Source: Candidatus Giovannonibacteria bacterium RIFCSPLOWO2_12_FULL_43_11c
GTDB lineage: Bacteria > Patescibacteriota > Minisyncoccia > JACPKW01 > UBA11713
Assembly (NCBI GenBank): GCA_001780775.1
Contig: MFIO01000001.1
Location: 1-62,849, forward strand
DNA: 62,849 nt
Reading direction: 5' to 3'
Shown here piece by piece: positions 4,757 to 50,823 of this stretch; position 1 is the first letter of the stretch; every line of letters begins with the position of its first letter. The position numbers and the translations under genes were made by a program. A model generated the notes under the pieces. The model did not search any database. It was not told the origin of the DNA and saw nothing but the letters and a program-made list of their open reading frames with translations.

Positions 4757-5692
4757 CTATTTTCGCCTTTTGCCGTGGAATGCCTTATGAATTTCGCGCA
4801 GTGATTTATCTGTGACGTGCGTGTAGACTTGGGTCGTTGAGATGTTGGAATGGCCCAAAAGCGCCTGAACTGATCGCAAATCTGCGCCATTTATAAGCAA
4901 ATCTGTCGCGAACATGTGTCGCAAAACGTGCGGAGTCACTTTTTTCGAAATTCCAGCTTTAATCGCGTAGTATTTCAAAATTCTTTCGATTGAGCGGGAG
5001 GTTAATCTGGAGGTTTCTTTAGAATTTATCCCATAGCTGACAAACATCGCCTCAGCCATATCCCGTCTTTTATCTAAATATTCCTTGATTGCTTTTTTCG
5101 CGGAAGGGGAGAGAAAAACAACCCGGACTTTCTCTCCTTTCCCGCGGACTGAAAATTCATCCTTAGACAAATCAACCGAATCGCGGTCGAGTGAAGTCAA
5201 TTCCGAGACGCGAAGGCCGGTTGAGAATAGAAGTTCCAAAATCGCGCGGTCGCGGAGAACCCTTAAGTTTCCGAAGTTCGACTTCGGAGAGCCTTGAAGT
5301 CGAACTTCTTGGGGCGCCCTTAAAAGCCGCTCCAGCTCTTCTATAGTAATTAAATCCAAATCGCGCTCGGGAGCTTTCGCGAGCAAAATTCTTTCAGGCG
5401 AGAGCGACTCAATGCCGCGCCAAGCGAGATACTTTAAGAAATTCCTAAGCGCGATCAAGTGATAATTCTGGGTGCGCTTTTTTAGGCCTTTGCGATTCAA
5501 ATATAGGCGGTATTTCCGGACGAGTTCGTCATCTATTCCGGAAATCGAAGAAATCTTCGCAAAATCAAAAAATCTCTTAAGATAGCAGTCGTAATTCTCG
5601 ACTGTCTTAAGAGAGCGCCCGCGCTCGATCTCGAGATATTCCAAATATTGCCGATGAAATTCTTTTAAGCTCATATAAGTATTGTGCGACAT
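4757..5692 (-). CDS. XerC/XerD-family tyrosine recombinase
   Basis: 311 aa with an N-terminal core-binding domain. The catalytic blocks are ELLFSTGLRVSEL, HVLRHMFATDLL and LLGHSNISTTQVYTHV. It carries one palindromic element in frame. Confidence 0.85.
   Translation of the reverse strand: MSHNTYMSLKEFHRQYLEYLEIERGRSLKTVENYDCYLKRFFDFAKISSISGIDDELVRKYRLYLNRKGLKKRTQNYHLIALRNFLKYLAWRGIESLSPERILLAKAPERDLDLITIEELERLLRAPQEVRLQGSPKSNFGNLRVLRDRAILELLFSTGLRVSELTSLDRDSVDLSKDEFSVRGKGEKVRVVFLSPSAKKAIKEYLDKRRDMAEAMFVSYGINSKETSRLTSRSIERILKYYAIKAGISKKVTPHVLRHMFATDLLINGADLRSVQALLGHSNISTTQVYTHVTDKSLREIHKAFHGKRRK
5273..5308. repeat. GAAGTYCGACTTC palindromic element copy (in the xer gene)
   Basis: GAAGTTCGACTTC-ggagagcctt-GAAGTCGAACTTC, read on the minus strand as EVRLQGSPKSNFG, just upstream of the conserved RDRAILELLFSTGLRVSEL. 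Confidence 0.9.
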
Positions 5693-5736
5693 GAATCCGT
5701 ATTGTCAAAAAATGAAAATCATGCTAAGCTTCAAAA

Positions 5737-6009
5737 ATGCTGAAAAGCAAGGAAAAGGAGAAAATAATAGAGAAATTTAAGACGAGTGAAAAAGACACCG
5801 GCTCGGCTGCGGTTCAGGCAGCGATTTTGACGGAGGAAATTAAGCGCTTAACGGAGCACTTGAAAACGCACCGCAAAGACAAACATTCGAGGCGCGGCCT
5901 TTTGCAGATGGTTTCTAAAAGAAAAAAGCTTTTGGACTATATTTCGAAGAACAACCAAGCGGCATACATAGATGTAACCAAAAAACTCGGATTAAAATCT
6001 AAAATTTAA
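5737..6009 (+). CDS. rpsO: 30S ribosomal protein S15
   Basis: 90 aa with ...[32 protein letters not shown]... Confidence 0.95.
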
Positions 6010-6010
6010 A

Positions 6011-6520
6011 GTGACAAATATTATAAAACATAAAAACCAGCGCGTCGCTGTTTTTATAGACGCGCAAAACATGTATCATTCCGCGAAAAGTCTTTTCGGC
6101 GGAAGAGTCAATTTTAAGGAGCTTTTGAAAACGGCAGTCGCAGGGAGACAACTGATCCGCGCTTTTGGATATGTAATCAGGACGAAAACTGGAGAAGAAA
6201 AGCCGTTTATCGACGCGCTTTTGAGTTTGGGAATCGAGTCCAGGGAAAAAGATCTGCAAGAATTTTTTGGAGGAGCGAAAAAGGCGGATTGGGACGTCGG
6301 CATCGCGGTTGACGCGATTCGAACAATGGAGATCGTCGACGCGATTGTTATTGCGTCTGGGGACGGGGATTTTATTCCTCTTGTTCAATATTTGCAAAAT
6401 CAGGGAAGGAGAGTTGAGGTGATGGCATTCGGGCCTTCCGCTTCCGGAAAACTCCGAGAAGTCGCCGACGAGTTCATCGATCTCGCGGAAGATCCGGGAA
6501 AATATATATTGAAAAGATAG
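6011..6520 (+). CDS. NYN-domain (LabA/DUF88-like, PIN-like) putative ribonuclease
   Basis: 169 aa with a GTG start. Motifs VAVFIDAQNMYH and IASGDGDFIPLV. Confidence 0.75.
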   Translation: MTNIIKHKNQRVAVFIDAQNMYHSAKSLFGGRVNFKELLKTAVAGRQLIRAFGYVIRTKTGEEKPFIDALLSLGIESREKDLQEFFGGAKKADWDVGIAVDAIRTMEIVDAIVIASGDGDFIPLVQYLQNQGRRVEVMAFGPSASGKLREVADEFIDLAEDPGKYILKR

Positions 6521-6535
6521 TTTTCTAAATTCGAG

Positions 6536-6787
6536 ATGATTTACCGAATTCGCCCTCATGCGGAAAAAAGGATGAAAGAACGAACTATCTCGAAAATTCT
6601 TCTTGAAGAAGCACTACGCAAACCAACAAAAATCATGTATGATACGGGCAGAAATAGGACATTGATTAAGAAACTATATTACAAAGATTCAAAAGAAAGA
6701 TTGTTGCTTATTGCCTGCGAACAAACCGGCAATGTTCTCTATATAATTACGGTTATTGATACATCTAAGATTAAGAAGTATTTGTAA
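6536..6787 (+). CDS. DUF4258-like small protein (putative toxin of a two-gene module)
   Basis: 83 aa. It starts IRPHAEKRMKERTIS and has a ...LYIITVI... core, and is followed after 3 nt by a DUF2283-like ORF. Confidence 0.6.
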   Translation: MIYRIRPHAEKRMKERTISKILLEEALRKPTKIMYDTGRNRTLIKKLYYKDSKERLLLIACEQTGNVLYIITVIDTSKIKKYL

Positions 6788-6790
6788 AAT

Positions 6791-7030
6791 ATGAATAAGA
6801 AAAAAATAAAAATTGAATACGACAAGGGAAGTAGGGTGCTTTCCGTCGAAATGGGCAAGGTTAAAAGCGTTGATTCCGATATTCAGGGAAACGTAGTGAT
6901 TGATTATGATAAAAACGGCGACGTCGCGCGGATAAATCTCTATGATTTCAGCTTCGCCGATTTCCGCGACAATCAAAAAGCACTTAAGAGTTTTTCTAAA
7001 AATTCCGAAGTTCAGTTGGTGGCTAAGTAA
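6791..7030 (+). CDS. DUF2283-like small protein (putative antitoxin partner)
   Basis: 79 aa with the pattern YDKGSRVLSVEM...VIDYDKNGDVARINLYD. Confidence 0.6.
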   Translation: MNKKKIKIEYDKGSRVLSVEMGKVKSVDSDIQGNVVIDYDKNGDVARINLYDFSFADFRDNQKALKSFSKNSEVQLVAK

Positions 7031-7040
7031 GGTTATCATC

Positions 7041-7076
7041 AAATAAAAAAGCCCGGAAGGTGTGAAGTTCCTTCCG
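7041..7076 (-). terminator. Rho-independent terminator after the SemiSWEET-like gene
   Basis: Stem CGGAAGG/CCTTCCG (7054-7060 / 7070-7076). On the minus strand it is followed by GGCTTTTTTATTT. Confidence 0.6.
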
Positions 7077-7096
7077 AGCTCATTCGGTGGAATAGG

Positions 7097-9734: not shown

Positions 9735-9738
9735 TTTT

Positions 9739-10407: not shown

Positions 10408-10439
10408 GGGTTGCTTTCTGCCAGAGATTTTCATAACAT

Positions 10440-13366: not shown

Positions 13367-13630
13367 AGAGAAAAAAACGCGCTTGGCTTTGATTAAAATA
13401 TTGTTTTGGTTTGAAGTCTAATTAAAAGATAGCAACCACGACCATCAATTTAGAATAAAAAATCTGAAGCTATCTTGTTAATATTTTACAATTTAAAAGA
13501 GAGCGGGTCAATGATTTTTCCCAGATTTTATCCCCAGCAAAAATAAGAAATATTTTAGAAAAAAATGTCAAAAACCCTTATTTTATAAGTAAAAATTGGA
13601 GAACTCTTTCTTGCATGTTATCTTGAATTG

Positions 13631-15559
13631 ATGTCTAAAAAATATGACACTTTTACCCCTAATCAATCGCAGAAGGAAGCAATATTGACACAATCCGGAC
13701 CGGTATTGATAGTTGCCGGGGCCGGATCAGGTAAAACGATGGTTTTGACTCATCGCATCTCACATCTAATTGAATGGGGAGTCAAGTCCGATTCAATTTT
13801 GGCAATAACTTTCACAAATAAGGCCGCGGACGAGATGAAAAACCGCGTTTTTTCCCTGCTTCGAGAAAAACAGGGCTTTTCGTCTCCGTGGATCGGCACA
13901 TTCCACAGTTTTTGCGTATTTATATTGAGAAGCTCCGGAGGAGCTATCGGGATCAATAAAAACTTCTCCATTTTGGATGAGGAAGACAGTCTTTCCGTGA
14001 TTAAAGAAATTATGAAAGAATTCTCCCTTGATCCTAAGAAATTCGAACCAAGAAAAATCCGAAATATAATATCGAGAAGAAAAAATGAGATGCAGAACCC
14101 GAAGTCCGACTTCGGAGAGCCCTTGAAGTCGGACTTCGGGAGAATGCTATTCGAAATTTGGAGAAAATACGAGGAGAGGCTCCTGAAAATGAAAGCTTTG
14201 GATTTTGACGATCTATTGCTGAAAACGGTCGTACTTTTCACCAAGCATCCGGACATTCTCCGTGATTGGCAGGAAAAATTTAAATATGTCCATGTTGACG
14301 AATATCAGGATACGAATTTAGTCCAGTATCACTTGGTTAAATTGCTCGCGGAAAAATATCGAAACATATGCGTCGTCGGAGATATAGATCAGGCGATATA
14401 TTCCTGGCGCGGGGCGGATTTCAGGAATATTCTACATTTTGAGCGCGACTGGCCAGACGCGAAAATAATCACACTTGAAGAAAATTATCGTTCGACAAAA
14501 CTTATTTTGGACGCGGCAAATGCTATAATCGTAAAAAATAAAGCACGATTACCAAAAAATCTTTACTCGAAAAAAATGTCCGGGCCAAAAATTACGCTTT
14601 TCGAAGGCGCAAACGAGGAGGAGGAAGCGAAGTTGATATCAGAAATGTCGAGAGAGATGATCCGCGGAGGAATAAATCCTAGGGACATCGCGGTTTTATA
14701 CCGAACAAATTTTCAATCGAGGATTATCGAAGAAAAAATGCTTGCTGAAAACATTTCTTATCAGGTCATCGGGGTAAAATTTTACGAGCGCAAAGAAATT
14801 AAAGACACGCTCGCGTATTTAAAAGTGTCGTTGAATAGAGAAGATATGCTGTCGCTCAAAAGAATCATCAACTTTCCGCCGAGAGGAATTGGGAAAGTTC
14901 TTTTGGCAAAAATTCTTGGCGGCCTGCCTGCGCAGGCAGACGCAGAGTTAAACTTAAAAGAGAATGCGAAGAAAGACGAACTTTTTAGACTTTTGGATGA
15001 AATAAAGGAAAATCTGGAAACAGAGAAAGCAAATGAAGCGATAAAACTCGTGATAAAAAAATCTGGCCTTGAGAATTATTTCGACGATGGAACCGAAGAA
15101 GGAGAAATTAGACTTTCCAATATTCGAGAGCTTGTCACGCTTGCTAAAAGGTATGATATTTTTAATCCACCTGAAGGAATATTGAAACTTTTGGAAGACG
15201 CCGCGCTTATGTCCGACCAGGACACTATAAAAAAAGAAGAAAATTCCGTTAAGCTTATGACGGTGCATGCGGCAAAAGGACTTGAATTTAAAGTGGTTTT
15301 TGTCGCCGGGCTTGAGGAGGGGCTTTTTCCTCACGCGGGCTTGGACGCCGCCCGCCTCGATGACGAATCGAGGCAGGAAGAAGAACGCCGGCTTTTTTAT
15401 GTCGCACTCACGCGGGCGAAGGAAAAAATTTTTCTCTCATACGCTATTTTTAGGACGATATTCGGCGAGAGAAGAATAAATATGCCGTCGAAATTTATTT
15501 CAGATATCCCTGAGGACCTGCTCGAACACGGGGATGAAGCCGTTATAATATTGGAATAA
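13631..15559 (+). CDS. UvrD/PcrA-family ATP-dependent DNA helicase
   Basis: Motifs AGAGSGKT, VDEYQDTN, TVHAAKGLEF and YVALTRAK. The start was set to the ATG at 13631. It carries a palindromic element and a 16-nt GC palindrome in frame. Confidence 0.9.
   Translation: MSKKYDTFTPNQSQKEAILTQSGPVLIVAGAGSGKTMVLTHRISHLIEWGVKSDSILAITFTNKAADEMKNRVFSLLREKQGFSSPWIGTFHSFCVFILRSSGGAIGINKNFSILDEEDSLSVIKEIMKEFSLDPKKFEPRKIRNIISRRKNEMQNPKSDFGEPLKSDFGRMLFEIWRKYEERLLKMKALDFDDLLLKTVVLFTKHPDILRDWQEKFKYVHVDEYQDTNLVQYHLVKLLAEKYRNICVVGDIDQAIYSWRGADFRNILHFERDWPDAKIITLEENYRSTKLILDAANAIIVKNKARLPKNLYSKKMSGPKITLFEGANEEEEAKLISEMSREMIRGGINPRDIAVLYRTNFQSRIIEEKMLAENISYQVIGVKFYERKEIKDTLAYLKVSLNREDMLSLKRIINFPPRGIGKVLLAKILGGLPAQADAELNLKENAKKDELFRLLDEIKENLETEKANEAIKLVIKKSGLENYFDDGTEEGEIRLSNIRELVTLAKRYDIFNPPEGILKLLEDAALMSDQDTIKKEENSVKLMTVHAAKGLEFKVVFVAGLEEGLFPHAGLDAARLDDESRQEEERRLFYVALTRAKEKIFLSYAIFRTIFGERRINMPSKFISDIPEDLLEHGDEAVIILE
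14101..14137. repeat. GAAGTYCGACTTC palindromic element copy (in the uvrD-like gene)
   Basis: cccGAAGTCCGACTTC-ggagagccctt-GAAGTCGGACTTCggg, giving a potential 16-bp stem. It is translated as PKSDFGEPLKSDFG. Confidence 0.9.
14924..14939. repeat. 16-nt perfect GC-rich palindrome CTGCCTGCGCAGGCAG in the helicase gene
   Basis: Read directly from the sequence. It is translated as ...LPAQADA... Confidence 0.6.
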
Positions 15560-15572: not shown

Positions 15573-16355
15573 ATGATAAAAAAATATCTGGGACAAAATT
15601 TTCTCAAAAATAAAAAAATCTTGGACGAAATTGTCCGCATTGGCGAAGTTTCAAAAGAGGATACCGTTTTGGAAGTCGGCCCCGGGCACGGAGAATTAAC
15701 TGAACTCTTGGCAAAGATGGCTAAGAAGGTTATTGCAGTTGAGAAAGATAAAGATTTAATTCCTCTTCTCCGAGAAAAATTTTCCTCAAACAAGAGAGTG
15801 AAAATAATTCATGAAGATATTCTTGAATTTGAAAATTTAAAATTACAAATTACAAATTACAAAATCGTCGCAAATATTCCCTACTACATCACTTCGCGCT
15901 TTTTACGCACCTATTTGTCCGATACTCGGTGTCGGCCATTGATGATCGTCCTTACGGTCCAATACGAGGTCGCAAAAAGAATTTCGGCGAAGCCTCCGGA
16001 TATGAACCTCCTTGCTTTGTCAGCACAGGCATATGGAAAAGTTGAATTCGTCCGAAAAGTCTCTCGGGGAAATTTCAGCCCGGCCCCGAAAGTTGATTCC
16101 GCGATAATAAAAATTTCAGAAATATCGGATAAATTTTTCAGAAAAAATAGGGTCAAGGAAAAGAAGTTTTTTGAAATTCTGCGCCAAGCTTTCCAGCAAA
16201 AGCGCAAAATGCTCCGTCATTCTTTATCCCCGAAGTTCGACTTCAAGGAACTCCGAAGTCGAACTTCGGAAAACTTCGGAACAAAACGGCCGGAGGAACT
16301 TTCGCTCGAAGATTGGGTAAAACTTTCGGAATCTATTGAGATCCGACCTCGATAG
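15573..16355 (+). CDS. rsmA: 16S rRNA (adenine1518/1519-N6)-dimethyltransferase
   Basis: Motifs LGQNFL, VLEVGPGHGELT and ANIPYYITS. It carries a 7-bp microsatellite and a palindromic element in frame. Confidence 0.9.
   Translation: MIKKYLGQNFLKNKKILDEIVRIGEVSKEDTVLEVGPGHGELTELLAKMAKKVIAVEKDKDLIPLLREKFSSNKRVKIIHEDILEFENLKLQITNYKIVANIPYYITSRFLRTYLSDTRCRPLMIVLTVQYEVAKRISAKPPDMNLLALSAQAYGKVEFVRKVSRGNFSPAPKVDSAIIKISEISDKFFRKNRVKEKKFFEILRQAFQQKRKMLRHSLSPKFDFKELRSRTSENFGTKRPEELSLEDWVKLSESIEIRPR
15840..15863 (+). repeat. (AAATTAC)x3 heptanucleotide microsatellite inside rsmA
   Basis: aaattac aaattac aaattac aaa. The 21 nt of the three units keep the frame and are read as ...LQITNYK... Confidence 0.8.
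16232..16267. repeat. GAAGTYCGACTTC palindromic element copy (in rsmA)
   Basis: GAAGTTCGACTTC-aaggaactcc-GAAGTCGAACTTC, read as PKFDFKELRSRTSE near the C-terminus. Confidence 0.9.
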
Positions 16356-28513: not shown

Positions 28514-29725
28514 ATGCAAGAATTTATCACAACCAAAAGAATAATAATCGCACTCGCTATTTTATTCGTGTTGTTTTTCGCGTCGGGGGCGATTTGGTAT
28601 TATTTTATCCGGGGTAATAGTTCGATAAATAATAATTCTAATCAGCCGGAACCGACTCCGATCGAAAATCCGTTCCCGGAAGGCGGCGGGAGAGAGCCCG
28701 TGAATGGCGGAAGTAGTTCGTCGAGTGGCGGATCGGATCTTGGGTCAGTCCCCCAAAACCTGAACGCATCGCAGGGCGACTCTACGCAGATCGTTCCCGA
28801 CGCGGTCGCCGGAGCTGTTTTCTATAAAAATAGGGTCCGCTACGTCGAAAAGTCTTCCGGAAATATTTTTGAGATTGATTTAGACGGGAAAAACAAAACC
28901 AATCTCTCTAATAATAAAATCTCTGGGGTTTTTGACGCTGTATGGTCCAAACAAGGGACGCGGGCAATAATCAAATACGCTTCGGGGGATAAAATTTTTA
29001 CCGTCTCCGCGGCGATTACAGGATCTACGACAAAGACAACGATTTTGCCTTCCGGGGTCAAAGACGCTGCTTTCTCACCAAAAGGAGACCGGATCGCCTA
29101 TGTACTCGTTTCGGGAGACAGTGCTTCCGTTATAACCGCGACTCCGGAAAATAAAAACCAGGCGACGCGCCTTAAAATGAAATATTCATCCTGGAAAATT
29201 TTATGGGCGGAGGATAATGGCATTTATCTTCTGTCCTCTCCTTCGGCGTATCTGGATGGATTTCTATATAAAATAACCTTATCTTCCGGGGCTTTCTCTA
29301 AAATACTCGGCCCTTATCCAGGCCTCCTCGCATCCGTTAATACCCCCAGCCTAATTTTCTCCGAGACAAATCAAAAGGAAAAAACTATCAATACATTTCT
29401 TGCTAATTCCTCCGGAGGGAATATAGGTCCTCTTCCGATAAAAGCTATGCCGGAAAAATGCGCCTGGTCGAAAAAGGTCAAGGATGTCGTATTTTGCGCG
29501 GCTCCTCTGATCATGCCGGGGGCTATTTATCCCGACGATTGGTATATGGGGAAAGTATCTTTTGGAGATGCTGTCGTAAAAATAAACATAGCCTCGCGGG
29601 CGATAATCTCTTTCTTGCTGCCGAAGGCGATCGACACAACTAAACTTTTCCTCTCCGACGACGAAACAAACTTGTTTTTTATAAATAAGACAGACGAATC
29701 GCTTTGGAGATTGAGGCTGCCCTGA
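28514..29725 (+). CDS. N-terminally anchored beta-propeller (TolB/PD40-like) protein
   Basis: 403 aa with an N-terminal TM and a Gly/Ser/Asn linker. It has repeated beta-strand units, e.g. AAFSPKGDRIAYVLVSGD. The stop codon is formed at the junction with a palindromic element. Confidence 0.6.
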   Translation: MQEFITTKRIIIALAILFVLFFASGAIWYYFIRGNSSINNNSNQPEPTPIENPFPEGGGREPVNGGSSSSSGGSDLGSVPQNLNASQGDSTQIVPDAVAGAVFYKNRVRYVEKSSGNIFEIDLDGKNKTNLSNNKISGVFDAVWSKQGTRAIIKYASGDKIFTVSAAITGSTTKTTILPSGVKDAAFSPKGDRIAYVLVSGDSASVITATPENKNQATRLKMKYSSWKILWAEDNGIYLLSSPSAYLDGFLYKITLSSGAFSKILGPYPGLLASVNTPSLIFSETNQKEKTINTFLANSSGGNIGPLPIKAMPEKCAWSKKVKDVVFCAAPLIMPGAIYPDDWYMGKVSFGDAVVKINIASRAIISFLLPKAIDTTKLFLSDDETNLFFINKTDESLWRLRLP

Positions 29726-29759
29726 AGTCCGACTTCAGAGTGCCCCGAAGTCGGACTTC
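29724..29759. repeat. GAAGTYCGACTTC palindromic element copy, intergenic (possible bidirectional terminator)
   Basis: ctGAAGTCCGACTTC-agagtgcccc-GAAGTCGGACTTCag fills the whole 37-nt gap between convergent genes and overlaps the TGA at 29723-29725. Confidence 0.9.
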
Positions 29760-29762
29760 AGC

Positions 29763-30224
29763 CTAGTTCACGCCGAAAGGCTTTATCACAACCTTTCTAT
29801 TCGGTTCCTCCCCGATTGACTTGGTTGTTATGTCCGGGTATTCAGTTAGAATCGCATGAACTATTCTTCTTTCGTACGAACTCATCGGCCGCAATTGTAT
29901 TTCTTTTTTGAAATATCTGACGCGTTGAGCGGATAGTCTCGCCAAATCTTTTATTTCTTCCGCTCTTTGTTTTTGATAATCGTTCACGTCGATTGAAAAG
30001 GGAAACGATACTTTTCCCAACTTAGCCTCCGTTATTCTTTTCAATAGATGATTTAGCGCTATTAGATTTTCTCCTCCTTCTCCTATTAAAAGTCCCGCTT
30101 CTTGCGTTCTTATTTGAAATTGAGTGTTGTCTGCCGTTTCAAATATAGAAACACCGCCAAAAACTCCTATTTTAGCCAAAAGCTCTTCAATTATTTCCTT
30201 TATTTTTTCCTTCTCCTGATCCAT
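29763..30224 (-). CDS. jag: Jag/KhpB-like RNA-binding protein (KH + R3H)
   Basis: 153 aa with GLLIGEGGENLIALNHLL (KH-like) and SYERRIVHAIL (R3H). It lies downstream of yidC. Confidence 0.8.
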   Translation of the reverse strand: MDQEKEKIKEIIEELLAKIGVFGGVSIFETADNTQFQIRTQEAGLLIGEGGENLIALNHLLKRITEAKLGKVSFPFSIDVNDYQKQRAEEIKDLARLSAQRVRYFKKEIQLRPMSSYERRIVHAILTEYPDITTKSIGEEPNRKVVIKPFGVN

Positions 30225-31701: not shown

Positions 31702-33066
31702 ATGACTAACGAAGAATTGTGGCAAACCGCGTTGAACGAGCTGGAATTGGCCGTTTCGAAAGCTAATTTTATTACCTGGTTTCAAAACACATCCGTTGCC
31801 GACCATCAAGATGGAGTAATCGTGCTCAATGTGCCAAACGCGTTCGCAAAAGAATGGCTCGAATACAAATACCACAAGTTTATCCTTAAAGCGCTCCGAA
31901 ACCTCTCTCCTGACGTACGCAATGTGGAGTATGTAATCTCTTCCGAAATAACTCCTCTCCTTCAAAAAAGAAAACGTGAACGCAGTATTATGCCTCAAGA
32001 AGGCCAACTTGAATTCAAGGAACTCTTGGTTGACCGAGAAACAAACTTGAACCCACGCTATACATTTGATTCTTTTATAGTCGGCTCATTCAACGAACTC
32101 GCTCACGCGGCATCAGTCGCTGTGAGTAAAAACTTAGGTCAGGCATATAATCCTCTCTTTCTTTACGGCGGAGTTGGTCTTGGTAAAACCCACTTGTTGC
32201 AAGCTGTTGGGAATGAGATTAAAAAGAGCTCACTGCGCTTTAAAGTTTTATACACAACATCGGAACGTTTCACGAGCGACCTTGTAAATTTCATGCAATC
32301 GAACGAGGCAGCCGTTTTCAAAGAAAAATACCGATCTTACGATCTCCTTATAATAGACGACATCCAATTCATAGCCGGTAAAGTAAAGACGCAAGAAGAG
32401 CTTTTCCATATATTTAATTATCTGTATGAATCTGGTAAACAAATAATTTTTTCTTCAGATAAGCCACCACACGCCATAAACGATTTGGAGGAGCGCCTTA
32501 AAAGTCGATTTGAAGGGGGGATGGTGGCTGATATCGGGCAGCCGGAATATGAGTCCCGGCTCGCAATTTTAAAATCCAAGTCCCAAGGCAAGGATAATTA
32601 TTTAAATCTGGAAATCTTGGAATACATAGCTTCAAATGTTCAGAAGAATGTGCGAGAATTAGAAGGCGCGTTAAACGCGGTTATTGTGAAATCAAAGCTT
32701 TCTGGGAAAACTCTCTCTATCCCCGAAATTAAAGAAATTTTGGATAAAAATACACAGCCAAAAAGGATAGTTACTGCAAATCATATAATAAAATGTGTCG
32801 CAGAATTTTATGATGTAAATGAGAGAACTTTATTTGAAAAGACTAGAAAAAAAGAGATAGTAAAACCAAGACAGATCGCTATGTACTTATTAAGGGAGGA
32901 CTATAGCGGCTCTTATCCTTATATAGGTCAACGGTTTGGCGGCAGGGATCATACAACCGCGATACACGCCTTTGATAAAATATCAAAGGCATTAAAAAGG
33001 GATTCTCAGCTTGTGGAAGAGATGAGGAGAATACGTGAATTATATAACTACAACTCTTCAACATAA
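31702..33066 (+). CDS. dnaA: Chromosomal replication initiator DnaA
   Basis: 454 aa with YNPLFLYGGVGLGKTHLL, LLIIDDIQF and the domain IV sequence PRQIAMYLLRE...IGQRFGGRDHTTAIHA. Confidence 0.95.
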   Translation: MTNEELWQTALNELELAVSKANFITWFQNTSVADHQDGVIVLNVPNAFAKEWLEYKYHKFILKALRNLSPDVRNVEYVISSEITPLLQKRKRERSIMPQEGQLEFKELLVDRETNLNPRYTFDSFIVGSFNELAHAASVAVSKNLGQAYNPLFLYGGVGLGKTHLLQAVGNEIKKSSLRFKVLYTTSERFTSDLVNFMQSNEAAVFKEKYRSYDLLIIDDIQFIAGKVKTQEELFHIFNYLYESGKQIIFSSDKPPHAINDLEERLKSRFEGGMVADIGQPEYESRLAILKSKSQGKDNYLNLEILEYIASNVQKNVRELEGALNAVIVKSKLSGKTLSIPEIKEILDKNTQPKRIVTANHIIKCVAEFYDVNERTLFEKTRKKEIVKPRQIAMYLLREDYSGSYPYIGQRFGGRDHTTAIHAFDKISKALKRDSQLVEEMRRIRELYNYNSST

Positions 33067-33187
33067 AAAATATAACTTATAAACAACCCAAATTATCAAC
33101 ATGCTATTAAATAATATATTTAAATATATTATTTAAACGCTAGGGGAAATAAGATTTCCACAAATAAAACAAAAATTTATAATAACA
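33067..33187. other. Candidate oriC / DNA-unwinding region in the dnaA-dnaN spacer
   Basis: A 30-bp perfect AT-only palindrome lies at 33107-33136. DnaA-box-like 9-mers are TTATCAACA (33093-33101) and ATTTCCACA (33164-33172). Confidence 0.5.
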
Positions 33188-34285
33188 ATGAAACTAAATT
33201 GTAATAAAAATGAATTATATAAATTAGTTAGCTTAGCTGAAAGAAGTACTAGTAAAAACCCGACTTTAATTACTCTATCTTCCATACTTCTCCGCACTAA
33301 TAAAAACCGTCTATTTGTAATAAGTACAAATTTAGAAGTTGGTTTTGAGGGAAGTCTTTCAGCATCAATAGAACAGGAAGGGGAGGTATTATCTCCAGCA
33401 AAAACACTCCTTTCTGTACTTTACGCGATACATGAAGAGGATATAAATATGTATAACATTGGGGGAAATTTAAAAATAATCTCAAAGACATCTTCAATAA
33501 ATTTAAAATGCCTGCCAGTAGATGAATTTCCAACAATCCCAAAGATAAAAAAAGAAAACCATTTTCTAATATCTAGCGATTCTTTGATTGAGGCTTTAAA
33601 AAATACAATCCTCGCAACGGCAACGAACTATACAAAACCAGAATTGGCCAGCGTCTATATGTTTTCTCAAGGTAAATTACCATTAACGCTTATAGCTACT
33701 GATTCTTTCAGACTTGCGGAGTATAAGACAGACGCTTCTTATCTATCACTCTCCATACTTTTACCACAAAAAACGTGCCAAGAGATCATTAAAATCTTCG
33801 AAGATTTTAATGATGACATCGAGGTTGTTTTTAATAAAAATCAAGTACTTTTCCATGGAAGAAACATTTCATTTTTGTCCAGGTTGACTGAAGGCAAATT
33901 TCCAGAATATCAAACAATAATTCCAAAATCCTTTGATACGCAAGTTTTTACGGATAAAAACCAAATATTAAATGCGGTACGGGCGGCGGGAATTTTTTCT
34001 TCCAAGCTCTCAGAAGTTGTAATTGCTGTCGATGGAGACAAAAGTATTTTAAGCGTGAAGTCTTCGAATGCGGAAACCGGGGAGTACGAATCTAATTACC
34101 CAGCCAAAATATCCGGCGCTTCCGTCGAAGCAAATTTTAATTACCATTATTTACTCGAGGCGCTTCAGGCAATTTCAAAACAAAAAGTTTTTCTTGGATT
34201 TAACGGTCCTCAAAAAGCCGTCTTGATTAGGGGCGCAGATGACACTAGATATCTGCATCTGGTTATGCCAATGAGAGGGAATTAA
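33188..34285 (+). CDS. dnaN: DNA polymerase III beta sliding clamp
   Basis: 365 aa. Called from its position after dnaA and a three-domain clamp pattern (...ATDSFRLAEYK...LTEGKFPEYQTIIP...MPMR). Confidence 0.9.
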   Translation: MKLNCNKNELYKLVSLAERSTSKNPTLITLSSILLRTNKNRLFVISTNLEVGFEGSLSASIEQEGEVLSPAKTLLSVLYAIHEEDINMYNIGGNLKIISKTSSINLKCLPVDEFPTIPKIKKENHFLISSDSLIEALKNTILATATNYTKPELASVYMFSQGKLPLTLIATDSFRLAEYKTDASYLSLSILLPQKTCQEIIKIFEDFNDDIEVVFNKNQVLFHGRNISFLSRLTEGKFPEYQTIIPKSFDTQVFTDKNQILNAVRAAGIFSSKLSEVVIAVDGDKSILSVKSSNAETGEYESNYPAKISGASVEANFNYHYLLEALQAISKQKVFLGFNGPQKAVLIRGADDTRYLHLVMPMRGN

Positions 34286-37099: not shown

Positions 37100-38275
37100 A
37101 TGAAAAAGATTTCAAATGAGGATATAAAAGGTATTTTAGAGAAAAACGTTGATGAAGTAATTGATCGTGCGAGCCTCGAGGAAAAACTCATATCTGGGAA
37201 AAAACTCCGAGTAAAGCTTGGCATAGACCCGACGAGCCCGAATATTCATATTGGCCGGGCGGTGGTTTTGCGAAAGCTCCGAGATTTTCAGAAATTAGGC
37301 CATACCGTCATTTTTATAGTCGGCGATTTTACAGGTCTCATTGGGGACACTTCTGATAAGGAATCAGAACGCCCTATGCTTACAGAAAAACAGGTCAAAG
37401 CGAACATGAAAACTTATTTTAAGCAAGCCTTCAAAATTCTGGATAAGAATAAAACTGAGACTCATTATAATTCCGAGTGGCTAAAGAAACTGGGATTTAA
37501 GGAAATCGCCTCGATCGCTGATCTGTTTGGCCTTCACGAGTTCGAAGCGCGGGAAGTGATTGCGAGGCGCCTGAAAGAAGGTAGGCGGGTTTCTCTTCGA
37601 GAAGTATTATATCCGTTAATGCAGGGGTATGATAGCGTTGCGGTTAAGGCTGATGTTGAAATAGGCGGGACAGATCAGCGTTTCAATCTTCTCTCCGGAC
37701 GTGTAATTCAACAGCGCTACGGACAGCAACCGCAGGATATATTAATGACGGCATTCCCGCTGGAGGGAACAGACGGGCGGAAAATGTCTTCTTCTTGGGG
37801 AAACGTAATTAATATTAACGACGAACCAAATAATATATTTGGAAAGGTTATGTCTATTCGCGATGACCTTATCGAAAAATATTACAAACTTGCCACGGAT
37901 TTGACGGATGATGAGATTGCTAGAAATATGAAAAAAGGGGCGCTTGGCGCGAAAAAGGAACTTGCATTCGAGATAACGAAACTATATCACGGTGAGAAAA
38001 AAGCACTCGTAGCACGGAAGTTTTTCAAAGAAACATTTCAAGAGAAAAAACTGCCGAGCGAGATCGAATCCATCAACTTCGAGCCAAAGGCTTCTATAAG
38101 CCAGATAATTGTAAAAAGCGGCGCTTGTCAGTCGATGTCAAAAGCGCGCGAACTCGTACGCCAAAAAGCCATAGAGCTAGATGGTAAAATTATTACAGAC
38201 CCGGCGTTCAAGCCGAATACTACAGGAATACTCAAAATCGGAAAGAAAAAATTCATAAAAATAGTGCTGAAATAA
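37100..38275 (+). CDS. tyrS: Tyrosine--tRNA ligase
   Basis: 391 aa with GIDPTSPNIHIGR (HIGH region), KMSSS (KMSKS) and a C-terminal S4-like domain. Confidence 0.85.
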   Translation: MKKISNEDIKGILEKNVDEVIDRASLEEKLISGKKLRVKLGIDPTSPNIHIGRAVVLRKLRDFQKLGHTVIFIVGDFTGLIGDTSDKESERPMLTEKQVKANMKTYFKQAFKILDKNKTETHYNSEWLKKLGFKEIASIADLFGLHEFEAREVIARRLKEGRRVSLREVLYPLMQGYDSVAVKADVEIGGTDQRFNLLSGRVIQQRYGQQPQDILMTAFPLEGTDGRKMSSSWGNVININDEPNNIFGKVMSIRDDLIEKYYKLATDLTDDEIARNMKKGALGAKKELAFEITKLYHGEKKALVARKFFKETFQEKKLPSEIESINFEPKASISQIIVKSGACQSMSKARELVRQKAIELDGKIITDPAFKPNTTGILKIGKKKFIKIVLK

Positions 38276-38308
38276 AAACAACCCCGACCGAGCGTTGGGG
38301 TTGTTTTT
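38276..38308. terminator. Bidirectional rho-independent terminator
   Basis: A 10-bp stem AAACAACCCC / GGGGTTGTTT with an 11-nt loop and T-runs on both strands. It sits between convergent tyrS and the small acidic ORF. Confidence 0.75.
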
Positions 38309-38310
38309 AT

Positions 38311-38436
38311 TTATACTTCTTCTTCCTCTTCTTCGTCTAGATCTTCCCAGGACTCCTCCGTATCATCCCCATCGTCAACCACATCATCGTTTTCATTGTC
38401 GTAGGAGTCGGAGAAATCAGCATTCCTCTTTTTCAT
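38311..38436 (-). CDS. Possible 41-aa highly acidic micro-protein
   Basis: Manual translation gives MKKRNADFSDSYDNENDDVVDDGDDTEESWEDLDEEEEEEV. It lies downstream of ruvC and ends at the terminator. No clear Shine-Dalgarno. Confidence 0.3.
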   Translation of the reverse strand: MKKRNADFSDSYDNENDDVVDDGDDTEESWEDLDEEEEEEV

Positions 38437-43847: not shown

Positions 43848-44318
43848 ATGAAAGAGGCGCTTCGGGCTATAACTAAGAACGCTAAACAAACGGAAAAATT
43901 TGCAGAGGCGTTTGCGAGAGAAGTTTTAAGACTAAAAACTAAGCGCGCGATTTTAATTGGGCTAGAGGGGGAACTTGGCGCGGGGAAGACGACTTTCGCG
44001 AAGGGATTTGCGCGAGGGCTCGGGATCAAAGAGGAGATGAAAAGCCCGACTTTTATTTTGATGCGTGTTTTTCGAAGTTCGACTCCGACGTTTCGTCGGA
44101 GTCGAACTTCGTGGGAGCGTTTTTTTCATATCGACGCCTATCGCGATCAGATTGATTTTAGAGAATATCTAAAGAGCAAAAAAAATATTTTACTTGTTGA
44201 ATGGTCCGATAAAGCAAAAAAATTTCTTCCTAAAAATTATTTCAGGTTTGTTTTAAGAAGTCCGACTTCAAAGACACCCCGAAGTCGGACTTCGAGAGAG
44301 ATAAAGTTTTATGTCTAA
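43848..44318 (+). CDS. tsaE: tRNA t6A37 biosynthesis ATPase TsaE
   Basis: P-loop LEGELGAGKTTFAKG, then SPTF...HIDAYR. The gene is interrupted in frame by two palindromic elements. Confidence 0.8.
   Translation: MKEALRAITKNAKQTEKFAEAFAREVLRLKTKRAILIGLEGELGAGKTTFAKGFARGLGIKEEMKSPTFILMRVFRSSTPTFRRSRTSWERFFHIDAYRDQIDFREYLKSKKNILLVEWSDKAKKFLPKNYFRFVLRSPTSKTPRSRTSREIKFYV
44073..44111. repeat. Palindromic element copy (tsaE copy 1), perfect 18-bp arms
   Basis: CGAAGTTCGACTCCGACG-ttt-CGTCGGAGTCGAACTTCG is 39 nt and is read as RSSTPTFRRSRTS. Its half-sites differ from the consensus by a compensatory pair (CTTC->CTCC with GAAG->GGAG). Confidence 0.9.
44257..44293. repeat. GAAGTYCGACTTC palindromic element copy (tsaE copy 2)
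   Basis: GAAGTCCGACTTC-aaagacacccc-GAAGTCGGACTTC, read as RSPTSKTPRSRTSR near the C-terminus. Confidence 0.9.
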
Positions 44319-46917: not shown

Positions 46918-46922
46918 AAGAC

Positions 46923-47297: not shown

Positions 47298-47299
47298 CC

Positions 47300-48154: not shown

Positions 48155-48401
48155 TTCTTTTCGAGAGCCTGGATTTTTTTCGGGAGGCTGTATTGGCATC
48201 AAGAATTTTTTGTTTGACGGCTTTATCCAGAGCTTTTTGAACTGTCGGGAAATAATTTCTAGCCTCGTCTAATTTTTTCTCCTTCATAAGCCGCGAGAAT
48301 GTCTTAAGCGCTTTCGCGAGCGAGGCCTTGCGCCCCAAATTTCTCTCTTTATTACGAAGAGACTTCCTATGCGCTTTTTTTGCTGATTTTGTTATTGGCA
48401 T
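48144..48401 (-). CDS. rpsT: 30S ribosomal protein S20
   Basis: 85 aa starting MPITKSAKKAHRKSLRNKERN... Confidence 0.9.
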   Translation of the reverse strand: MPITKSAKKAHRKSLRNKERNLGRKASLAKALKTFSRLMKEKKLDEARNYFPTVQKALDKAVKQKILDANTASRKKSRLSKRIRA

Positions 48402-48499
48402 ATTTGGCTATACTACATCAAGATTTTGAAGTTTGCAATAAAGCTCGGGGCGGTTATCCTCGAGCTTTTTGCTTGTACCTTTCGGCGTTGTGTGATTGC

Positions 48500-48745
48500 T
48501 TAATCGCCGTACTCCGAGGCGTTTTGCATTTTGAATTTCTTACCGACTTGGATTTCGCTTTCACATAGGAGTTTGTAATCTTTGCCTGCGAAACTCCAAG
48601 GAAGTCCCTCAAGAAATGGGTGCTTAATCTGAAGTTGTTTGAACGCATGCTCTGGCGTCTCGGCGTCAAATGAGCTCCCTATTTTCTTGTGGCAGGATTC
48701 TTCACCCCACACACTCCACACAGCAAGAAGCGCGAAAGTAGGCAT
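48500..48745 (-). CDS. Hypothetical protein
   Basis: 81 aa with a strong Shine-Dalgarno (GGAGGaattATG). No family recognised. The overlapping track ORF 48454..48669 was rejected. Confidence 0.55.
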   Translation of the reverse strand: MPTFALLAVWSVWGEESCHKKIGSSFDAETPEHAFKQLQIKHPFLEGLPWSFAGKDYKLLCESEIQVGKKFKMQNASEYGD

Positions 48746-48792
48746 AATTCCTCCTTAAAAAACTTTTTAGTATTATAACAGCACGTAAGCAG

Positions 48793-50823
48793 TTATGCCA
48801 GAGTTTTTAGTACGTCCCGGTATTTCGCGGCTTTTTCGAATTCAAGGTTCGAGGCGGCCTCGAGCATCATTTTCTCCAAATCTTTTTTCGCGGAAACACG
48901 GTCCTTTTTGGAAAGCTTTTCCATCTCTTTCGAGATATCAGAAGTTTTTTTAATTTCTTCGAATATGGATGGGCGGATTTCTTTTTTAATCTGCCTCGGC
49001 GTGATGCCATGCTCGCGGTTGAAATTCTCTTGATATTCTCTACGGCGTTTGGTTTCATCAACCGTAAATTGCATAGATTCGGTCATAACATCTCCGTATA
49101 AAGTCGCGCGGCCGTTGATATGGCGCGCCGCGCGCCCGACGGTCTGGATCAAACTCGTTTTGTTTCGTAAAAACCCCTCTTTATCCGCGTCCAAGATTAA
49201 GATAAGCGCGACCTCCGGCAGGTCGAGCCCCTCTCTTAGAAGGTTTATCCCGACTAAAACATCAAATTCTCCCCTGCGAAGGCGGCGCAAAATATCCGTC
49301 CGCGCCAGAGTCTTTATCTCTGAATGAAGATATTCCGCGCGGATATTTTTTTCTTTAAGGTAATCCGATATTTCTTCAGCCATTCTCTTCGTCAGTGTCA
49401 GGAGCAAAACGCGCTCTTTGACTTTAACTGCTTTAATTATCTCTTCTTCTGCGTTTTTAATTTGTTCTCTTGCGGGCCTGATTTTGATTATCGGATCCAG
49501 TAACCCCGTCGGGCGGACGAGTTGTTCAATAACCCCTGAACCGAAGTTCGACTTCAAGGTGCCCCGAAGTCGAACTTCGGTAGATTTAGCAATTTCATAC
49601 GGCCCGGGTGTGGCCGATACGAATATCGCCTGCCCGACTTTTTTTTCAAACTCCTCGAATTTTAGCGGGCGGTTGTCTAGCGCCGAGGGTAGGCGAAATC
49701 CGTATTCGACAAGCGTTTTTTTACGCGCCTGATCCCCGAAATACATCCCTTTTATCTGCGGGACCGACATATGCGATTCATCAACAAAAAATAGTGTATC
49801 TTTTGGCAGATAATCAATCAATGTATAAGGAGGGGAGCCGGGCTTTCGCGCCGAGAGGTGTCGAGAATAATTCTCGATCCCGGAACAATACCCAACGTTT
49901 TTTAGCATTTCTAAATCAAACCGCGTCCTTTGCTCGATTCTCTCGGCTTCGAGCAATTTCCCTTCCTTTTTTAACTCGCGGACCCTCGTCTCCAACTCTT
50001 TTTTTATATTTTTCATTGCCCGTTCGATTTTTTCCCTTGGCGTAACGAAATGTTTTGCCGGGAAGATTTTTACCTCGCTCGGAAAAACAAGCTCCTTAAC
50101 ACCGGGTGTTTGAATCTCCCCAACACCCGGTGTTTTCCTGCCCGTTGGGGAAAGCGAGGTTATTCTTTCGATTTCGTCTCCGAAAAATTCAACGCGCGTA
50201 ATAGTCTCTCCGTCTGGGGAAGCTATATCGATTACGTCCCCTTTAACGGAATAAGTTCCTGCTCTTAAGTCAAAGTCTCCGCGTTCGTATTGGATGTCCG
50301 CCAAATCGCACAAAAACTTTTGCCGCCCTATCCGCAAGCCAATTTTTAATTCGACCGACATCGCGCCGTACTCCTCCGGATCGCCTACGCCATAAATGCA
50401 GGAGACCGAGGCAACGATTATAAAGTCTCTCCGTGTGAGCGCGGACTGGGTTGCCGAATGGCGCAGGCGGTCTATGAATTCATTTATTTTGGCATCTTTT
50501 TCTATATAAGTGTCAGTCACTGGCAGATACGCCTCCGGCTGGTAATAATCATAGTAAGAAACGAAATAATGGACGGCATTTTCCGGAAAAAATTCTTTGA
50601 ATTCCTGATACAATTGCGCGGCGAGAGTTTTATTATGCGAAATAATCAAAGCCGGCCGCCCAATTTCAGCAATCGTATGCGCCATCGTGAGTGTTTTCCC
50701 GGATCCAGTCACGCCAAGCAAAGTCTGGAATCTTTTTTTTGCGCGAATCCCCGCGACCAATTTCTTTATCGCCTCCGGCTGATCACCAGCTGGTTTCAAT
50801 AAATTTTTGTTCGAAAAATTCAT
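48793..50823 (-). CDS. uvrB: Excinuclease ABC subunit B
   Basis: 676 aa with [22 protein letters not shown] and a C-terminal UVR motif [11 protein letters not shown]. One palindromic element lies in frame. Confidence 0.95.
49543..49578. repeat. GAAGTYCGACTTC palindromic element copy (in uvrB)
   Basis: ccGAAGTTCGACTTC-aaggtgcccc-GAAGTCGAACTTCgg is read on the minus strand as [13 protein letters not shown], directly before the conserved [14 protein letters not shown]. Confidence 0.9.

Follow-up and report, generated by a model that had tools for sequence, protein, structure and literature searches.

Palindromic doublets in housekeeping genes

The window, by which we mean the whole 62.8-kb stretch of DNA analysed here from Candidatus Giovannonibacteria (ultra-small bacteria of the CPR), belongs to a genome that is ~87% coding and contains seven copies of one palindromic repeat, six of them in frame in xer, uvrD/pcrA, rsmA, tsaE (two copies) and uvrB (Table 1). 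These hosts had been named in a sequence-only reading of the same DNA, and Pfam matches agree with it (Phage_integrase/Xer, UvrD-helicase, RrnaAD, TsaE and UvrB). The seven copies listed by that reading are real: a search for the half-site GAAGTYCGACTTC on both strands of the window (≤1 mismatch) returns 20 matches against 0.33 expected and a shuffle maximum of 2. All 20 matches fall within the seven elements, and the same search finds no single half-site outside the doublets.

An inverted-repeat scan resolves the copies into perfect arms of 13–18 nt and spacers of 10–11 nt, with doublets of 36–43 nt. Both sub-types described earlier are present, as are the two spacer orientations. The proposed layout of half-site, 10–11-nt spacer and half-site fits every copy except 44073-44111, where the spacer is 3 nt; the outer arms GAAGTTCGACT/AGTCGAACTTC are kept and the interior is CCGACG-TTT-CGTCGG (CGAAGTTCGACTCCGACG-TTT-CGTCGGAGTCGAACTTCG), not a 13+10+13 arrangement. 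All copies fold as single-stranded DNA into the hairpins that had been predicted, at -13 to -23 kcal/mol with z-scores of -4 to -8 (xer copy, -13.3 kcal/mol, z -4.1; first tsaE copy, -23.4 kcal/mol). The half-site is in turn palindromic (6+1+6, or 5+3+5 in the TTCGA type), a property that bears on the interpretation of the elements. As can be read directly from the letters, it is stop-free in all six frames, and the coding copies use all three frames (EVRL, KSDF/KFDF and RSPTS/RSRTS).

The rsmA doublet is followed by a partial third repeat (ACTTCGGAA). The copy previously called intergenic does lie between convergent genes, but it gives the GA of the TGA stop to the upstream gene, and 3 nt separate its end from the stop of the convergent KH/R3H gene. 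Lacking a T-tract, it does not qualify as a canonical intrinsic terminator. Two further doublets are additional to the earlier list of seven: one of a second family with like architecture and different arms (2 matches against 0.02 expected), and one with a third arm variant.

Table 1. Doublets (candidate REP doublets) and associated genes in the window.
Feature	Coordinates	Strand	Build	Context	Read as
Third arm variant	594..634		GGGaTCCGACCCC-tggattctatc-GGGGTCGGACCCC	in frame in CCA-adding enzyme gene	...ISGSDPDRIQGSDPEV...
CCA-adding enzyme gene		minus		runs off window start	
xer tyrosine recombinase gene	4757-5692	minus			
Doublet, TTCGA type	5273..5308		GAAGTTCGACTTC-GGAGAGCCTT-GAAGTCGAACTTC	in frame in xer	EVRLQGSPKSNF
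uvrD/pcrA-like helicase gene	13628-15559	plus			
Doublet, TCCGA type	14098..14140		16-nt extended arms CCCGAAGTCCGACTTC ... GAAGTCGGACTTCGGG	in frame in uvrD/pcrA-like gene	PKSDFGEPLKSDFG
rsmA/ksgA	15573-16355	plus			
Doublet, TTCGA type	16230..16269		15-nt arms	in frame near rsmA/ksgA C-terminus	PKFDFKELRSRTS
Upstream convergent gene	28514-29725	plus			
Doublet, TCCGA type	29722..29761		15-nt arms	between convergent genes	
KH/R3H gene	29763-30224	minus			
tsaE gene	43848-44318	plus			
Variant hairpin	44073..44111		18-bp stem, 3-nt loop	in frame in tsaE (site 1)	RSSTPTFRRSRTS
Doublet, TCCGA type	44257..44293			in frame near tsaE C-terminus (site 2)	RSPTSKTPRSRTS
uvrB gene	48793-50823	minus			
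Doublet, TTCGA type	49540..49581		16-nt arms	in frame in uvrB	
Second doublet family	50098..50134		AACACCGGGTGTT-tgaatctcccc-AACACCCGGTGTT	in frame in uvrB	

Presence and absence among relatives

The inserts are lineage-specific, because relatives of 82–88% identity either are without them or carry variants, and the view of a stop-free palindromic family tolerated in frame in conserved housekeeping genes is supported. The main uvrB insert, a gain of 13 aa over the nearest relatives and a 14-aa gap relative to Bacillus caldotenax UvrB (PDB 2fdc), is missing in 85–88% identical relatives; P0013, P0004 and P0005 do have an insert at that position. At the first tsaE site, where the window gains 10 aa, L001 has no element and L002 a canonical doublet. 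At the second, L001 and L034 have a canonical orthologous copy and L002 the variant CCCCGACG-TTG-CGTCGGGG; window and L001 share the same arms there, with two positions of difference in the spacer. Sites with other arms also vary: L001 and L002 hold AACAC-TCG-GTGTT doublets at the uvrB site orthologous to the second family, and at the CCA-enzyme site GAAGTCCGACTTC and GAAGTTCGACTTC doublets occur in L042 and L049.

The claim that each coding copy adds about 12–13 aa is not valid throughout. It stands for uvrB; tsaE site 1 adds 10 aa, the xer region is a 16-aa gap relative to archaeal XerA (PDB 4a8e), and at the orthologous rsmA site relatives already hold a single half-site (L180, one half-site; L182, one half-site and a tandem duplication). 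In uvrD the net gain is ~1 aa, as the element takes the place of ~14 native residues: there is no gap at the element relative to PcrA (PDB 1pjr), and P0244 and P0245 (83–85% identical) have unrelated native sequence of equal length. The elements are therefore not always net insertions, and the word "inserted" is too simple for uvrD, in which a native segment of equal length is overwritten. From the copies compared, neither a target motif nor an exact insertion boundary could be defined. Across 185,579 species genomes, a scan for the exact pattern finds 97 stretches, most in CPR phyla; copies are intragenic in 6/7 cases in the window and 73/108 overall.

A Y1 transposase beside the same core

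In related CPR genomes the half-site accompanies a transposase gene. A 225-aa ORF at locus L075, with doublets on both sides, matches Pfam Y1_Tnp (E 2e-10); among NCBIfam models it scores best with the one for REP-associated tyrosine transposases, at 42 bits where the cutoff is 80. A Saccharibacteria homologue (locus L068), ~51–54% identical, is likewise flanked by doublets. The association was tested independently on 80 metagenome loci fetched by the transposase protein alone. Where the transposase is ≥46% identical, 56/60 loci have a GAAGT-NNN-ACTTC core within 200 nt, and 43/49 have it on both sides of the gene, whereas more distant transposases have it at 1/20 loci and are flanked by other palindromes instead. 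The core occurs 5.2 times per kb beside the transposase gene and 0.05 times per kb elsewhere, a ~100-fold difference. A 901-nt unit of transposase plus hairpins, bounded by hairpins, is present twice in one 585-kb contig at 99.9% identity, which by sequence comparison attests to its mobility.

The HUH histidines and the tyrosines are invariant in the transposase alignment. The AlphaFold2 model has as its best PDB match 4er8, a complex of the E. coli RAYT with a REP hairpin, ahead of the ISDra2 and IS608 TnpA structures; the match is modest (pLDDT 65, TM 0.36–0.46, E 1e-3). All members of the clade with a source name are from CPR bacteria. Dispersed copies far from the gene are rare in the transposase-carrying contigs (10 in 208 kb), and the gene alone does not account for high copy number.

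Origin of the doublets and comparison with known systems

We judge it probable, at about three chances in four, that the elements represent non-autonomous, REPIN-like REP doublets of a RAYT-like IS200/IS605-type Y1 (HUH) transposase clade, with the core as recognition and end structure. This reading follows from the flanking of IS200-like Y1 transposase genes by the same core. The enzyme would bind the single-stranded hairpin and cut and rejoin at its foot, so that hairpin units would be copied or moved, and such a transposase would have acted in the window's own genome. At this coding density most landing sites would be intragenic, and the survivors would be copies in frame, stop-free and in permissive loops or termini. 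Change after arrival is suggested by single and double units, tandem duplications, an interior converted into a longer perfect palindrome, and equivalent sites in relatives that are occupied by other arm variants. The encoded peptides are probably passengers in the protein. Counterpoints are a window free of Y1 transposase genes and the same-length replacement in uvrD, unpredicted by classical IS200-type insertion.

That replacement would sit more easily with orphan selfish palindromes of the Rickettsia kind, spread by recombination or slippage with no dedicated transposase and merely similar to insertion sequence ends. Duplication, halving and interior rewriting do resemble slippage or template switching, and neither the window nor five loci from close relatives contain a Y1 transposase gene. 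We nevertheless regard this origin as unlikely. Spacer as well as arms are common to seven unlinked copies, which points to the copying of a unit; the core found on both transposase sides changes with transposase clade, and another Y1 transposase gene (L017) is likewise flanked by the second family's AACAC core.

Equally unlikely, in our estimate, is selection of the hairpins for a role within the genes, either in mRNA (stability, translational pausing or termination) or as a protein-binding site in DNA. Every stem in the window is perfectly paired, the arms at tsaE site 2 are conserved next to a changing spacer, uvrB sites have been filled independently and repeatedly, and the orthologous CCA-enzyme arms differ yet stay complementary (GAAGTCCGACTTC, GAAGTTCGACTTC and GGGGTCSGACCCC). 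Such complementarity could also stem from replacement by a family member or from hairpin-templated repair. Moreover, the hairpins are dispensable in close relatives (uvrB in P0002/P0003; tsaE site 1 in L001), occupy both orientations with respect to transcription and all three frames of unrelated housekeeping genes, and have no match in Rfam.

CPR bacteria are thought to rely on DNA uptake, and the uptake sequences of Neisseria come in inverted pairs, with enrichment in genome-maintenance genes. With uvrB, uvrD and xer among the hosts and the motif common to many CPR phyla, an uptake sequence might be considered; it is very improbable, as the motif is never single in the window, occurs at low density, is itself palindromic, is concentrated 100-fold beside the transposase gene and follows transposase clade in sequence. 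Assembly or sequencing artefacts (chimeric palindromes or adapter remnants) are suggested by the general possibility of artefactual palindromes and the short length of many transposase-carrying contigs, and can be practically dismissed: independent assemblies, made in different projects and on different sequencing platforms, have copies at orthologous sites, always in frame and diverging together with their flanks.

As the likely cognate hairpin of a Y1 transposase clade, the half-site places the elements with the REP/REPIN-RAYT systems, reportedly the subject of work by Nunvar (2010), Bertels and Rainey (2011) and Ton-Hoang (2012). Shared features are a short palindromic hairpin repeat in inverted doublets, a Y1/HUH transposase gene with its own repeats at the flanks, a distinct hairpin sequence per transposase clade, and one copy between convergent genes that reaches into a stop codon. 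REPs within repair genes, namely UvrABC, UvrD/Rep and PolA genes, are already on record (Di Nocera et al., 2013; PMC3733652), and the intragenic copies described here resemble them. By contrast with REP/RAYT systems, there is no GTAG or CGTC tag, conservation lies in the hairpin top (GAAGT-NNN-ACTTC) above a variable lower stem, the unit is very small (13-nt core), the copies are mostly intragenic, and the hosts are CPR bacteria. The transposase, at 225–240 aa, is longer than RAYTs, lies below the NCBIfam RAYT cutoff and can be multi-copy.

Rickettsia palindromic elements (RPE), reportedly described by Ogata et al. in 2000 and 2002, are likewise in-frame palindromic repeats in functional genes including uvrB, apparently tolerated in surface regions. 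RPE-1 is ~100–150 bp long, and to our knowledge no transposase is known for RPEs. The window elements are three to four times shorter, lie outside the Rickettsia lineage and appear tied to a Y1 transposase. The RPE-like behaviour proposed by the sequence-only reading is thus a parallel that holds as analogy, not membership, for elements that are probably not orphans; its overall interpretation is partly supported. R. conorii RPE-4 and RPE-6 have themselves been classed as REPs (Di Nocera et al., 2013; PMC3733652). As in IS200/IS605 elements, a Y1 HUH transposase would act on end hairpins, the 901-nt unit behaves as an insertion sequence, and the doublets resemble fused ends without the gene, like miniature derivatives (PATEs/MITEs). 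Unlike IS200/IS605, no tnpB partner adjoins the transposase genes examined, left and right hairpins are one palindrome rather than distinct ends, and no target tetranucleotide is identified.

Our literature searches found no REP/RAYT report for CPR bacteria, in agreement with the earlier remark that such behaviour is undescribed for this kind of genome. What these genes would carry is selfish DNA of a known kind, for which our searches gave no report in this lineage or at this coding density.

Repeat unit, hairpins and host genes

The repeat family of seven copies proposed in the sequence-only reading is borne out by a search of both strands of the window with the half-site GAAGTYCGACTTC, which at up to one mismatch returns 20 matches against 0.33 expected from shuffles, all of them confined to the seven elements of the table; single half-sites are absent from the window. 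The layout proposed there, complementary 13-nt arms on either side of a 10-11-nt spacer, describes six of the elements but not the first copy in tsaE. Several elements have arms lengthened to 15-16 nt through CC...GG-type flanks, and the inverted repeats in the window form perfect stems of 13-18 bp. Every element scores as a stable single-stranded DNA hairpin (z-scores -4 to -8), and each arm is palindromic in itself, arranged as 6+1+6 in GAAGTC-S-GACTTC and as 5+3+5 in the TTCGA type. When placed in a common orientation the spacers are alike (AAGGCTCTCC, AAGGGCTCTCC, AAGGAACTCC, AGAGTGCCCC, AAAGACACCCC, AAGGTGCCCC), with the consensus AARGnnnCYCC between copies and the doublet form YCG...CGR, meaning that the repeated unit is the whole doublet and not the arm alone. 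Orientation relative to transcription has no consistent bias (3 vs 2 among canonical coding copies). No target motif or target-site duplication could be defined at the element flanks, which mostly prolong the palindrome (CC...GG) and leave the exact boundaries unfixed. Two sister doublets in the window share the architecture of the main family and have other arms.

Palindromic doublets of the main and sister families in the window
Type	Position	Gene or location	Remarks
Sister doublet	594-634	CCA-adding enzyme gene	arms GGGGTCSGACCCC
Doublet	5273-5308	xer	
Doublet	14098-14140	uvrD	
Doublet	16230-16269	rsmA	
Doublet	29722-29761	between convergent genes	
Variant copy	44073-44111	tsaE, site 1	18-bp stem, 3-nt loop, only outer arm parts retained
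Doublet	44257-44293	tsaE, site 2	
Doublet	49540-49581	uvrB	
Sister doublet	50098-50134	uvrB	arms AACACCSGGTGTT, 11-nt spacer

The UvrB encoded in the window matches at 100% identity a protein of Candidatus Giovannonibacteria bacterium RIFCSPLOWO2_12_FULL_43_11c, a MAG of the CPR (Parcubacteria). Pfam identifies the host genes as had been claimed (Xer-type recombinase, UvrD/PcrA helicase, RsmA/KsgA, TsaE and UvrB), and the coding copies are, again as claimed, all in frame and stop-free, with all three frames in use. The copy described as intergenic does lie between convergent genes, but it supplies the final two bases of a TGA stop. An intrinsic terminator is contradicted by the long loop of 10-11 nt, by the lack of a T-tract at this copy and by the location of six of the seven copies in ORFs; that same location departs from the extragenic position by which REPs are defined and agrees with the in-frame residence of Rickettsia palindromic elements (RPEs) in genes for functional proteins. 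A known RNA family is contradicted by an Rfam scan of the window at gathering thresholds, which returned four tRNAs and nothing else.

The window holds other palindromes. Perfect hairpins at 38270-38312, 52622-52656 and 62045-62078 have the doublet geometry (12-16-bp stems, 10-11-nt loops) with arms unrelated to those of the doublets, and apparently lie at or near gene ends. AT-rich perfect 13+4+13 palindromes are present at 33107-33136, between an ORF ending at 33066 and one starting at 33188, and at 33785-33814, within the ORF 33188-34285.

Insertion, replacement and refilling among relatives

Each coding copy had been thought to add about 12-13 aa to its protein, which is not true of every gene. 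In uvrB the block falls opposite a gap of 14 aa in the Bacillus caldotenax structure, and in xer opposite a gap of 16 aa in XerA. In uvrD the block leaves no gap against PcrA, relatives at 83-85% identity have unrelated native sequence of equal length, and some 14 residues have been overwritten by the element, which lengthens the protein by only 1 aa net. Simple insertion does not account for this same-length replacement. The uvrB block is missing from the nearest relatives, which are 88% and 85% identical, and its site holds a same-family copy (EVRIRGVLKSDFDS) in the related protein P0013 and a different hairpin (GGAAGCTGAGCTTCC-ACTT-GGAAGCTCAGCTTCC) in L002, a locus of a close relative. The first tsaE site, which carries the variant hairpin in the window, is vacant in L001, the locus of another close relative, and is occupied in L002 by an almost canonical doublet in which one nucleotide of the arm is mismatched. 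The second has the canonical doublet in both the window and L001, rewritten in L002 to CCCCGACG-TTG-CGTCGGGG. The rsmA site is reduced to a single arm in the relative L180, and to a single arm with a tandem duplication in the relative L182. The presence, absence and variation seen at the uvrB, tsaE, uvrD and rsmA sites mean that the blocks are lineage-specific and dynamic.

The uvrD gene of L182 (3001-4905) has at this site a rewritten form, CCGAAGTCCGACTCCGACAT-AA-TGTCGGAGTCGGACTTCGG, with an interior of the same type as that of the first tsaE copy in the window; since both share this interior, the conversion of a doublet into a long perfect palindrome is recurrent. Tandem duplications directly beside elements occur in L182:4908-5672 (rsmA; GACTTCGGTATGAG twice) and in another element-bearing locus (L049:1793-1989; CTGGAGATTCCGAAG twice), and point to replication slippage at hairpins.

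AACAC doublets occupy, in both L001 and L002, the uvrB site matching that of the sister doublet in the window, and the AACAC core also flanks a transposase gene in locus L017. More distant Giovannonibacteria have a GAAGT doublet at that uvrB site, with a similar spacer and in reverse orientation. The conserved spacer had prompted the idea of an arm swap in situ at this position (uvrB 230-250), which was rejected on account of the opposite orientation of GAAGT-arm and AACAC-arm copies; for the same reason independent insertion of the two is more likely. At the CCA-enzyme site, orthologues contain GAAGTCCGACTTC or GAAGTTCGACTTC doublets. Doublets with other arms at orthologous uvrB and CCA-enzyme sites thus indicate that the same permissive sites are filled repeatedly, and the mutual complementarity of the arms is kept in every case. 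The UvrB gene of relatives (L001:10001-11980) also has a different in-frame palindrome, GTCCACCAGCTGGCGGAC, which encodes SPPAGG, and the related proteins P0032 and P0033 contain similar PPAGG(APE)GG inserts; such inserts suggest that CPR housekeeping genes hold further hairpin families.

In an AlphaFold2 model of UvrB built on a shallow alignment (mean pLDDT 59.7), the two stretches encoded by elements (417-427 and 227-247) are modelled as low-confidence coil, as are many other regions, which weakly suggests that they may lie in surface loops. The perfect stems and the complementary changes at orthologous sites are what would be expected if the hairpins were kept for a selected intragenic function. 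This explanation is nevertheless improbable, given that the elements are missing from close relatives and occur in both orientations, in all frames and in unrelated hosts.

Distribution and association with a Y1 transposase

An exact-pattern scan covering 185,579 species, each by a single genome, returned 97 stretches, most of them from CPR lineages (Giovannoni-, Sacchari-, Vogel-, Morani-, Nomura-, Azam- and Ryan-bacteria, Paceibacterota) and a few labelled non-CPR; loops and flanks vary among sub-families. Coding copies are the large majority, 73 of 108 exact copies lying well within ORFs of at least 100 aa, though this is fewer than would be expected where 87% of the DNA is coding (p = 5e-7). 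The genes that host them are housekeeping genes, namely those for class I aminoacyl-tRNA synthetases, Mur ligases, the CCA-adding enzyme, UvrB, UvrA, TsaD and RNase HII. Two exact-pattern scans of viral contigs, covering the arm orders C...G and G...C, found no match and so gave no evidence of phage carriage.

Giovannonibacteria have a sub-family of about 61 nt, N6-CCTCCTC-X-AAATCCCCAAA-X'-TTCCCGG-N6', in which the outer 6-7-bp stem differs by copy yet remains complementary (L014, L016, L018, L026, L028, L044, L054, L069, L077, L086 and others). The copies examined are all in frame, in uvrB and holA-like genes. In L054 and L069, two pairs of copies with a spacing of 1.8 kb were considered as the flanks of an insertion sequence, and are in fact in-frame copies in adjacent holA-like and uvrB genes. 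Exact arm pairs with unrelated spacers, some within long ORFs, are found in a few genomes labelled as non-CPR (a Bifidobacterium santillanense isolate, L043; Parabacteroides, L041; Chloroflexota, L004, L030 and L039; Omnitrophota, L013; Elusimicrobia, L082), and may reflect chance hairpin formation, horizontal transfer or contamination during binning.

In locus L075 a 225-aa ORF lies between two non-coding copies; it matches Pfam Y1_Tnp (IS200-like; E 2e-10) and, as its best NCBIfam match, the REP-associated tyrosine transposase (RAYT) model, at 42 bits, below the cutoff of 80. A Saccharibacteria homologue in L068, about 51-54% identical, is likewise bracketed by copies, and in L100, too, the transposase gene has doublets at its flanks. 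Other Y1 genes among the loci have different flanking palindromes (ACTTGGACAC..., AAAGGTGWCACCTTT, GCAACAC-TCG-GTGTTGC). The L068 transposase gene (398-1114) has an in-frame doublet of its own (…SPEVGLRKFPKSDFGR…), and the neighbouring gene for a 1104-aa UvrD/AddA-like helicase (1169-4483) contains a direct-type pair (PKSDFGRLPKSDFGR).

An independent test used 80 metagenome loci retrieved by the transposase protein alone. The core GAAGT-NNN-ACTTC lies within 200 nt in 56 of the 60 loci whose transposase shares 46% identity or more with the L075 protein, on both sides in 43 of 49, and near the gene in only 1 of 20 more distant homologues. Its density is 5.2 per kb beside the gene vs 0.05 per kb elsewhere, about 100-fold. 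The core caps a longer hairpin with a lineage-dependent lower stem; across the 60 transposase-flanking sets there is no conserved GTAG or CGTC tag, and the outer bases vary between lineages (tac/gta, tcg/cga, tatg/cata, cc/gg). These flank statistics weaken the explanation of the elements as an orphan RPE-like repeat without a transposase, which is now left with a low likelihood. A DNA uptake sequence, set apart both by the lack of lone copies in the window and by the 100-fold concentration at the transposase gene, is highly improbable, and the chance that the elements are an assembly artefact is practically negligible.

At E <= 1e-20 the transposase clade comprises at least 7,599 homologues, and its source-named members are CPR in every case. 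All aligned members keep the HUH histidines and tyrosines. The structure closest to the AlphaFold2 model (pLDDT 65) is the E. coli RAYT-REP complex (4er8), followed by the ISDra2 and IS608 transposases; this match came from fold comparison alone, PDB sequence searches with the single sequence and with a profile giving nothing significant. A 585-kb contig contains three homologues, two of them in the two copies of a 901-nt unit of transposase and hairpins, which are 99.9% identical and have hairpins at their ends, and the duplication within one contig indicates that the unit is mobile. No cognate transposase was found in the 62.8-kb window, the stretch of this genome covered, nor in the relatives' loci L001, L002 and L180-L182. 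Transposase-bearing contigs are often only 1-2 kb long, which fits assembly breaks at repeats, and MAGs may therefore under-report the gene.

Interpretation and significance

The reading to which a probability of about three in four is assigned is that the elements are of REP/REPIN type and belong to a RAYT-like clade with named members all from CPR. Directly observed are an in-frame, stop-free repeated hairpin unit, its turnover among close relatives, an association of core and transposase that depends on clade, and duplication of the unit. By analogy with RAYT/REP and IS200/IS605, the transposase would recognise the hairpin in single-stranded DNA and mobilise doublets. With intergenic space nearly absent, selection would retain in-frame copies at permissive positions alone, and later changes may arise through slippage, template switching inside the palindrome, or a swap for another family member.

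REP, REPIN and RAYT systems are well described. The elements share with them a short, dispersed palindromic hairpin repeat (seven copies plus two sister-family copies in 62.8 kb), a Y1 (HUH) gene flanked by its own repeat, seen here in related CPR genomes, and the REPIN arrangement of two inverted REPs with a short spacer, here 10-11 nt. Unlike REPs they are mostly intragenic and have no conserved GTAG or CGTC at the hairpin foot, and whereas RAYTs are single, vertically inherited copies per genome, the transposase occurs three times in one contig. RPE-1 measures about 100-150 nt, in contrast to a unit of 36-43 nt here. The likeness to RPEs suggested earlier survives as an analogy, that of selfish DNA tolerated in ORFs, but not as an identity, which is better given by a REP/REPIN-type element of a RAYT-like clade; RPE-4 and RPE-6 of R. 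conorii have themselves been equated with CGTC-type REPs, and intragenic exceptions to extragenic REPs are documented (Di Nocera et al., 2013; PMC3733652). What is new lies in the lineage, in a core that has no tag and is conserved at the hairpin top, in how small the unit is, in the preponderance of coding copies, and in evidence that native sequence is replaced and that the same sites are filled more than once. A literature search with incomplete journal coverage turned up neither REP/RAYT systems nor palindromic elements in frame for CPR/Patescibacteria, in line with the earlier remark that no description of this was known for such a genome.

A bolder version, rather unlikely as it stands, is that a long-lived CPR RAYT-like clade and its hairpins repeatedly rewrite the loops of essential proteins by replacement and insertion (UvrB, UvrA, PcrA, the CCA-adding enzyme, LeuRS and Mur ligases), with the complementarity of the stems actively maintained at orthologous sites. 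The hairpins would then have been recruited as signals in DNA or RNA within genes, or be a standing source of protein novelty, instead of mere passengers.

CPR/Patescibacteria have small genomes densely packed with genes and are regarded as poor in mobile DNA. On the REP/REPIN-type reading, a transposase-hairpin system spanning many CPR phyla has settled inside their essential genes, and REP/REPIN biology reaches past the phyla of the REP/RAYT reports found, to elements for which the term "extragenic" no longer fits. The GAAGT-NNN-ACTTC doublets and their sister cores provide a masking signature for MAG annotators and phylogeneticists. The same-length replacement in uvrD and the independent refills at the uvrB, tsaE and CCA-enzyme sites offer a route to Y1 target choice and protein tolerance, and many lineage-specific inserts of 10-16 aa in CPR proteins would derive from mobile DNA, not from adaptation.
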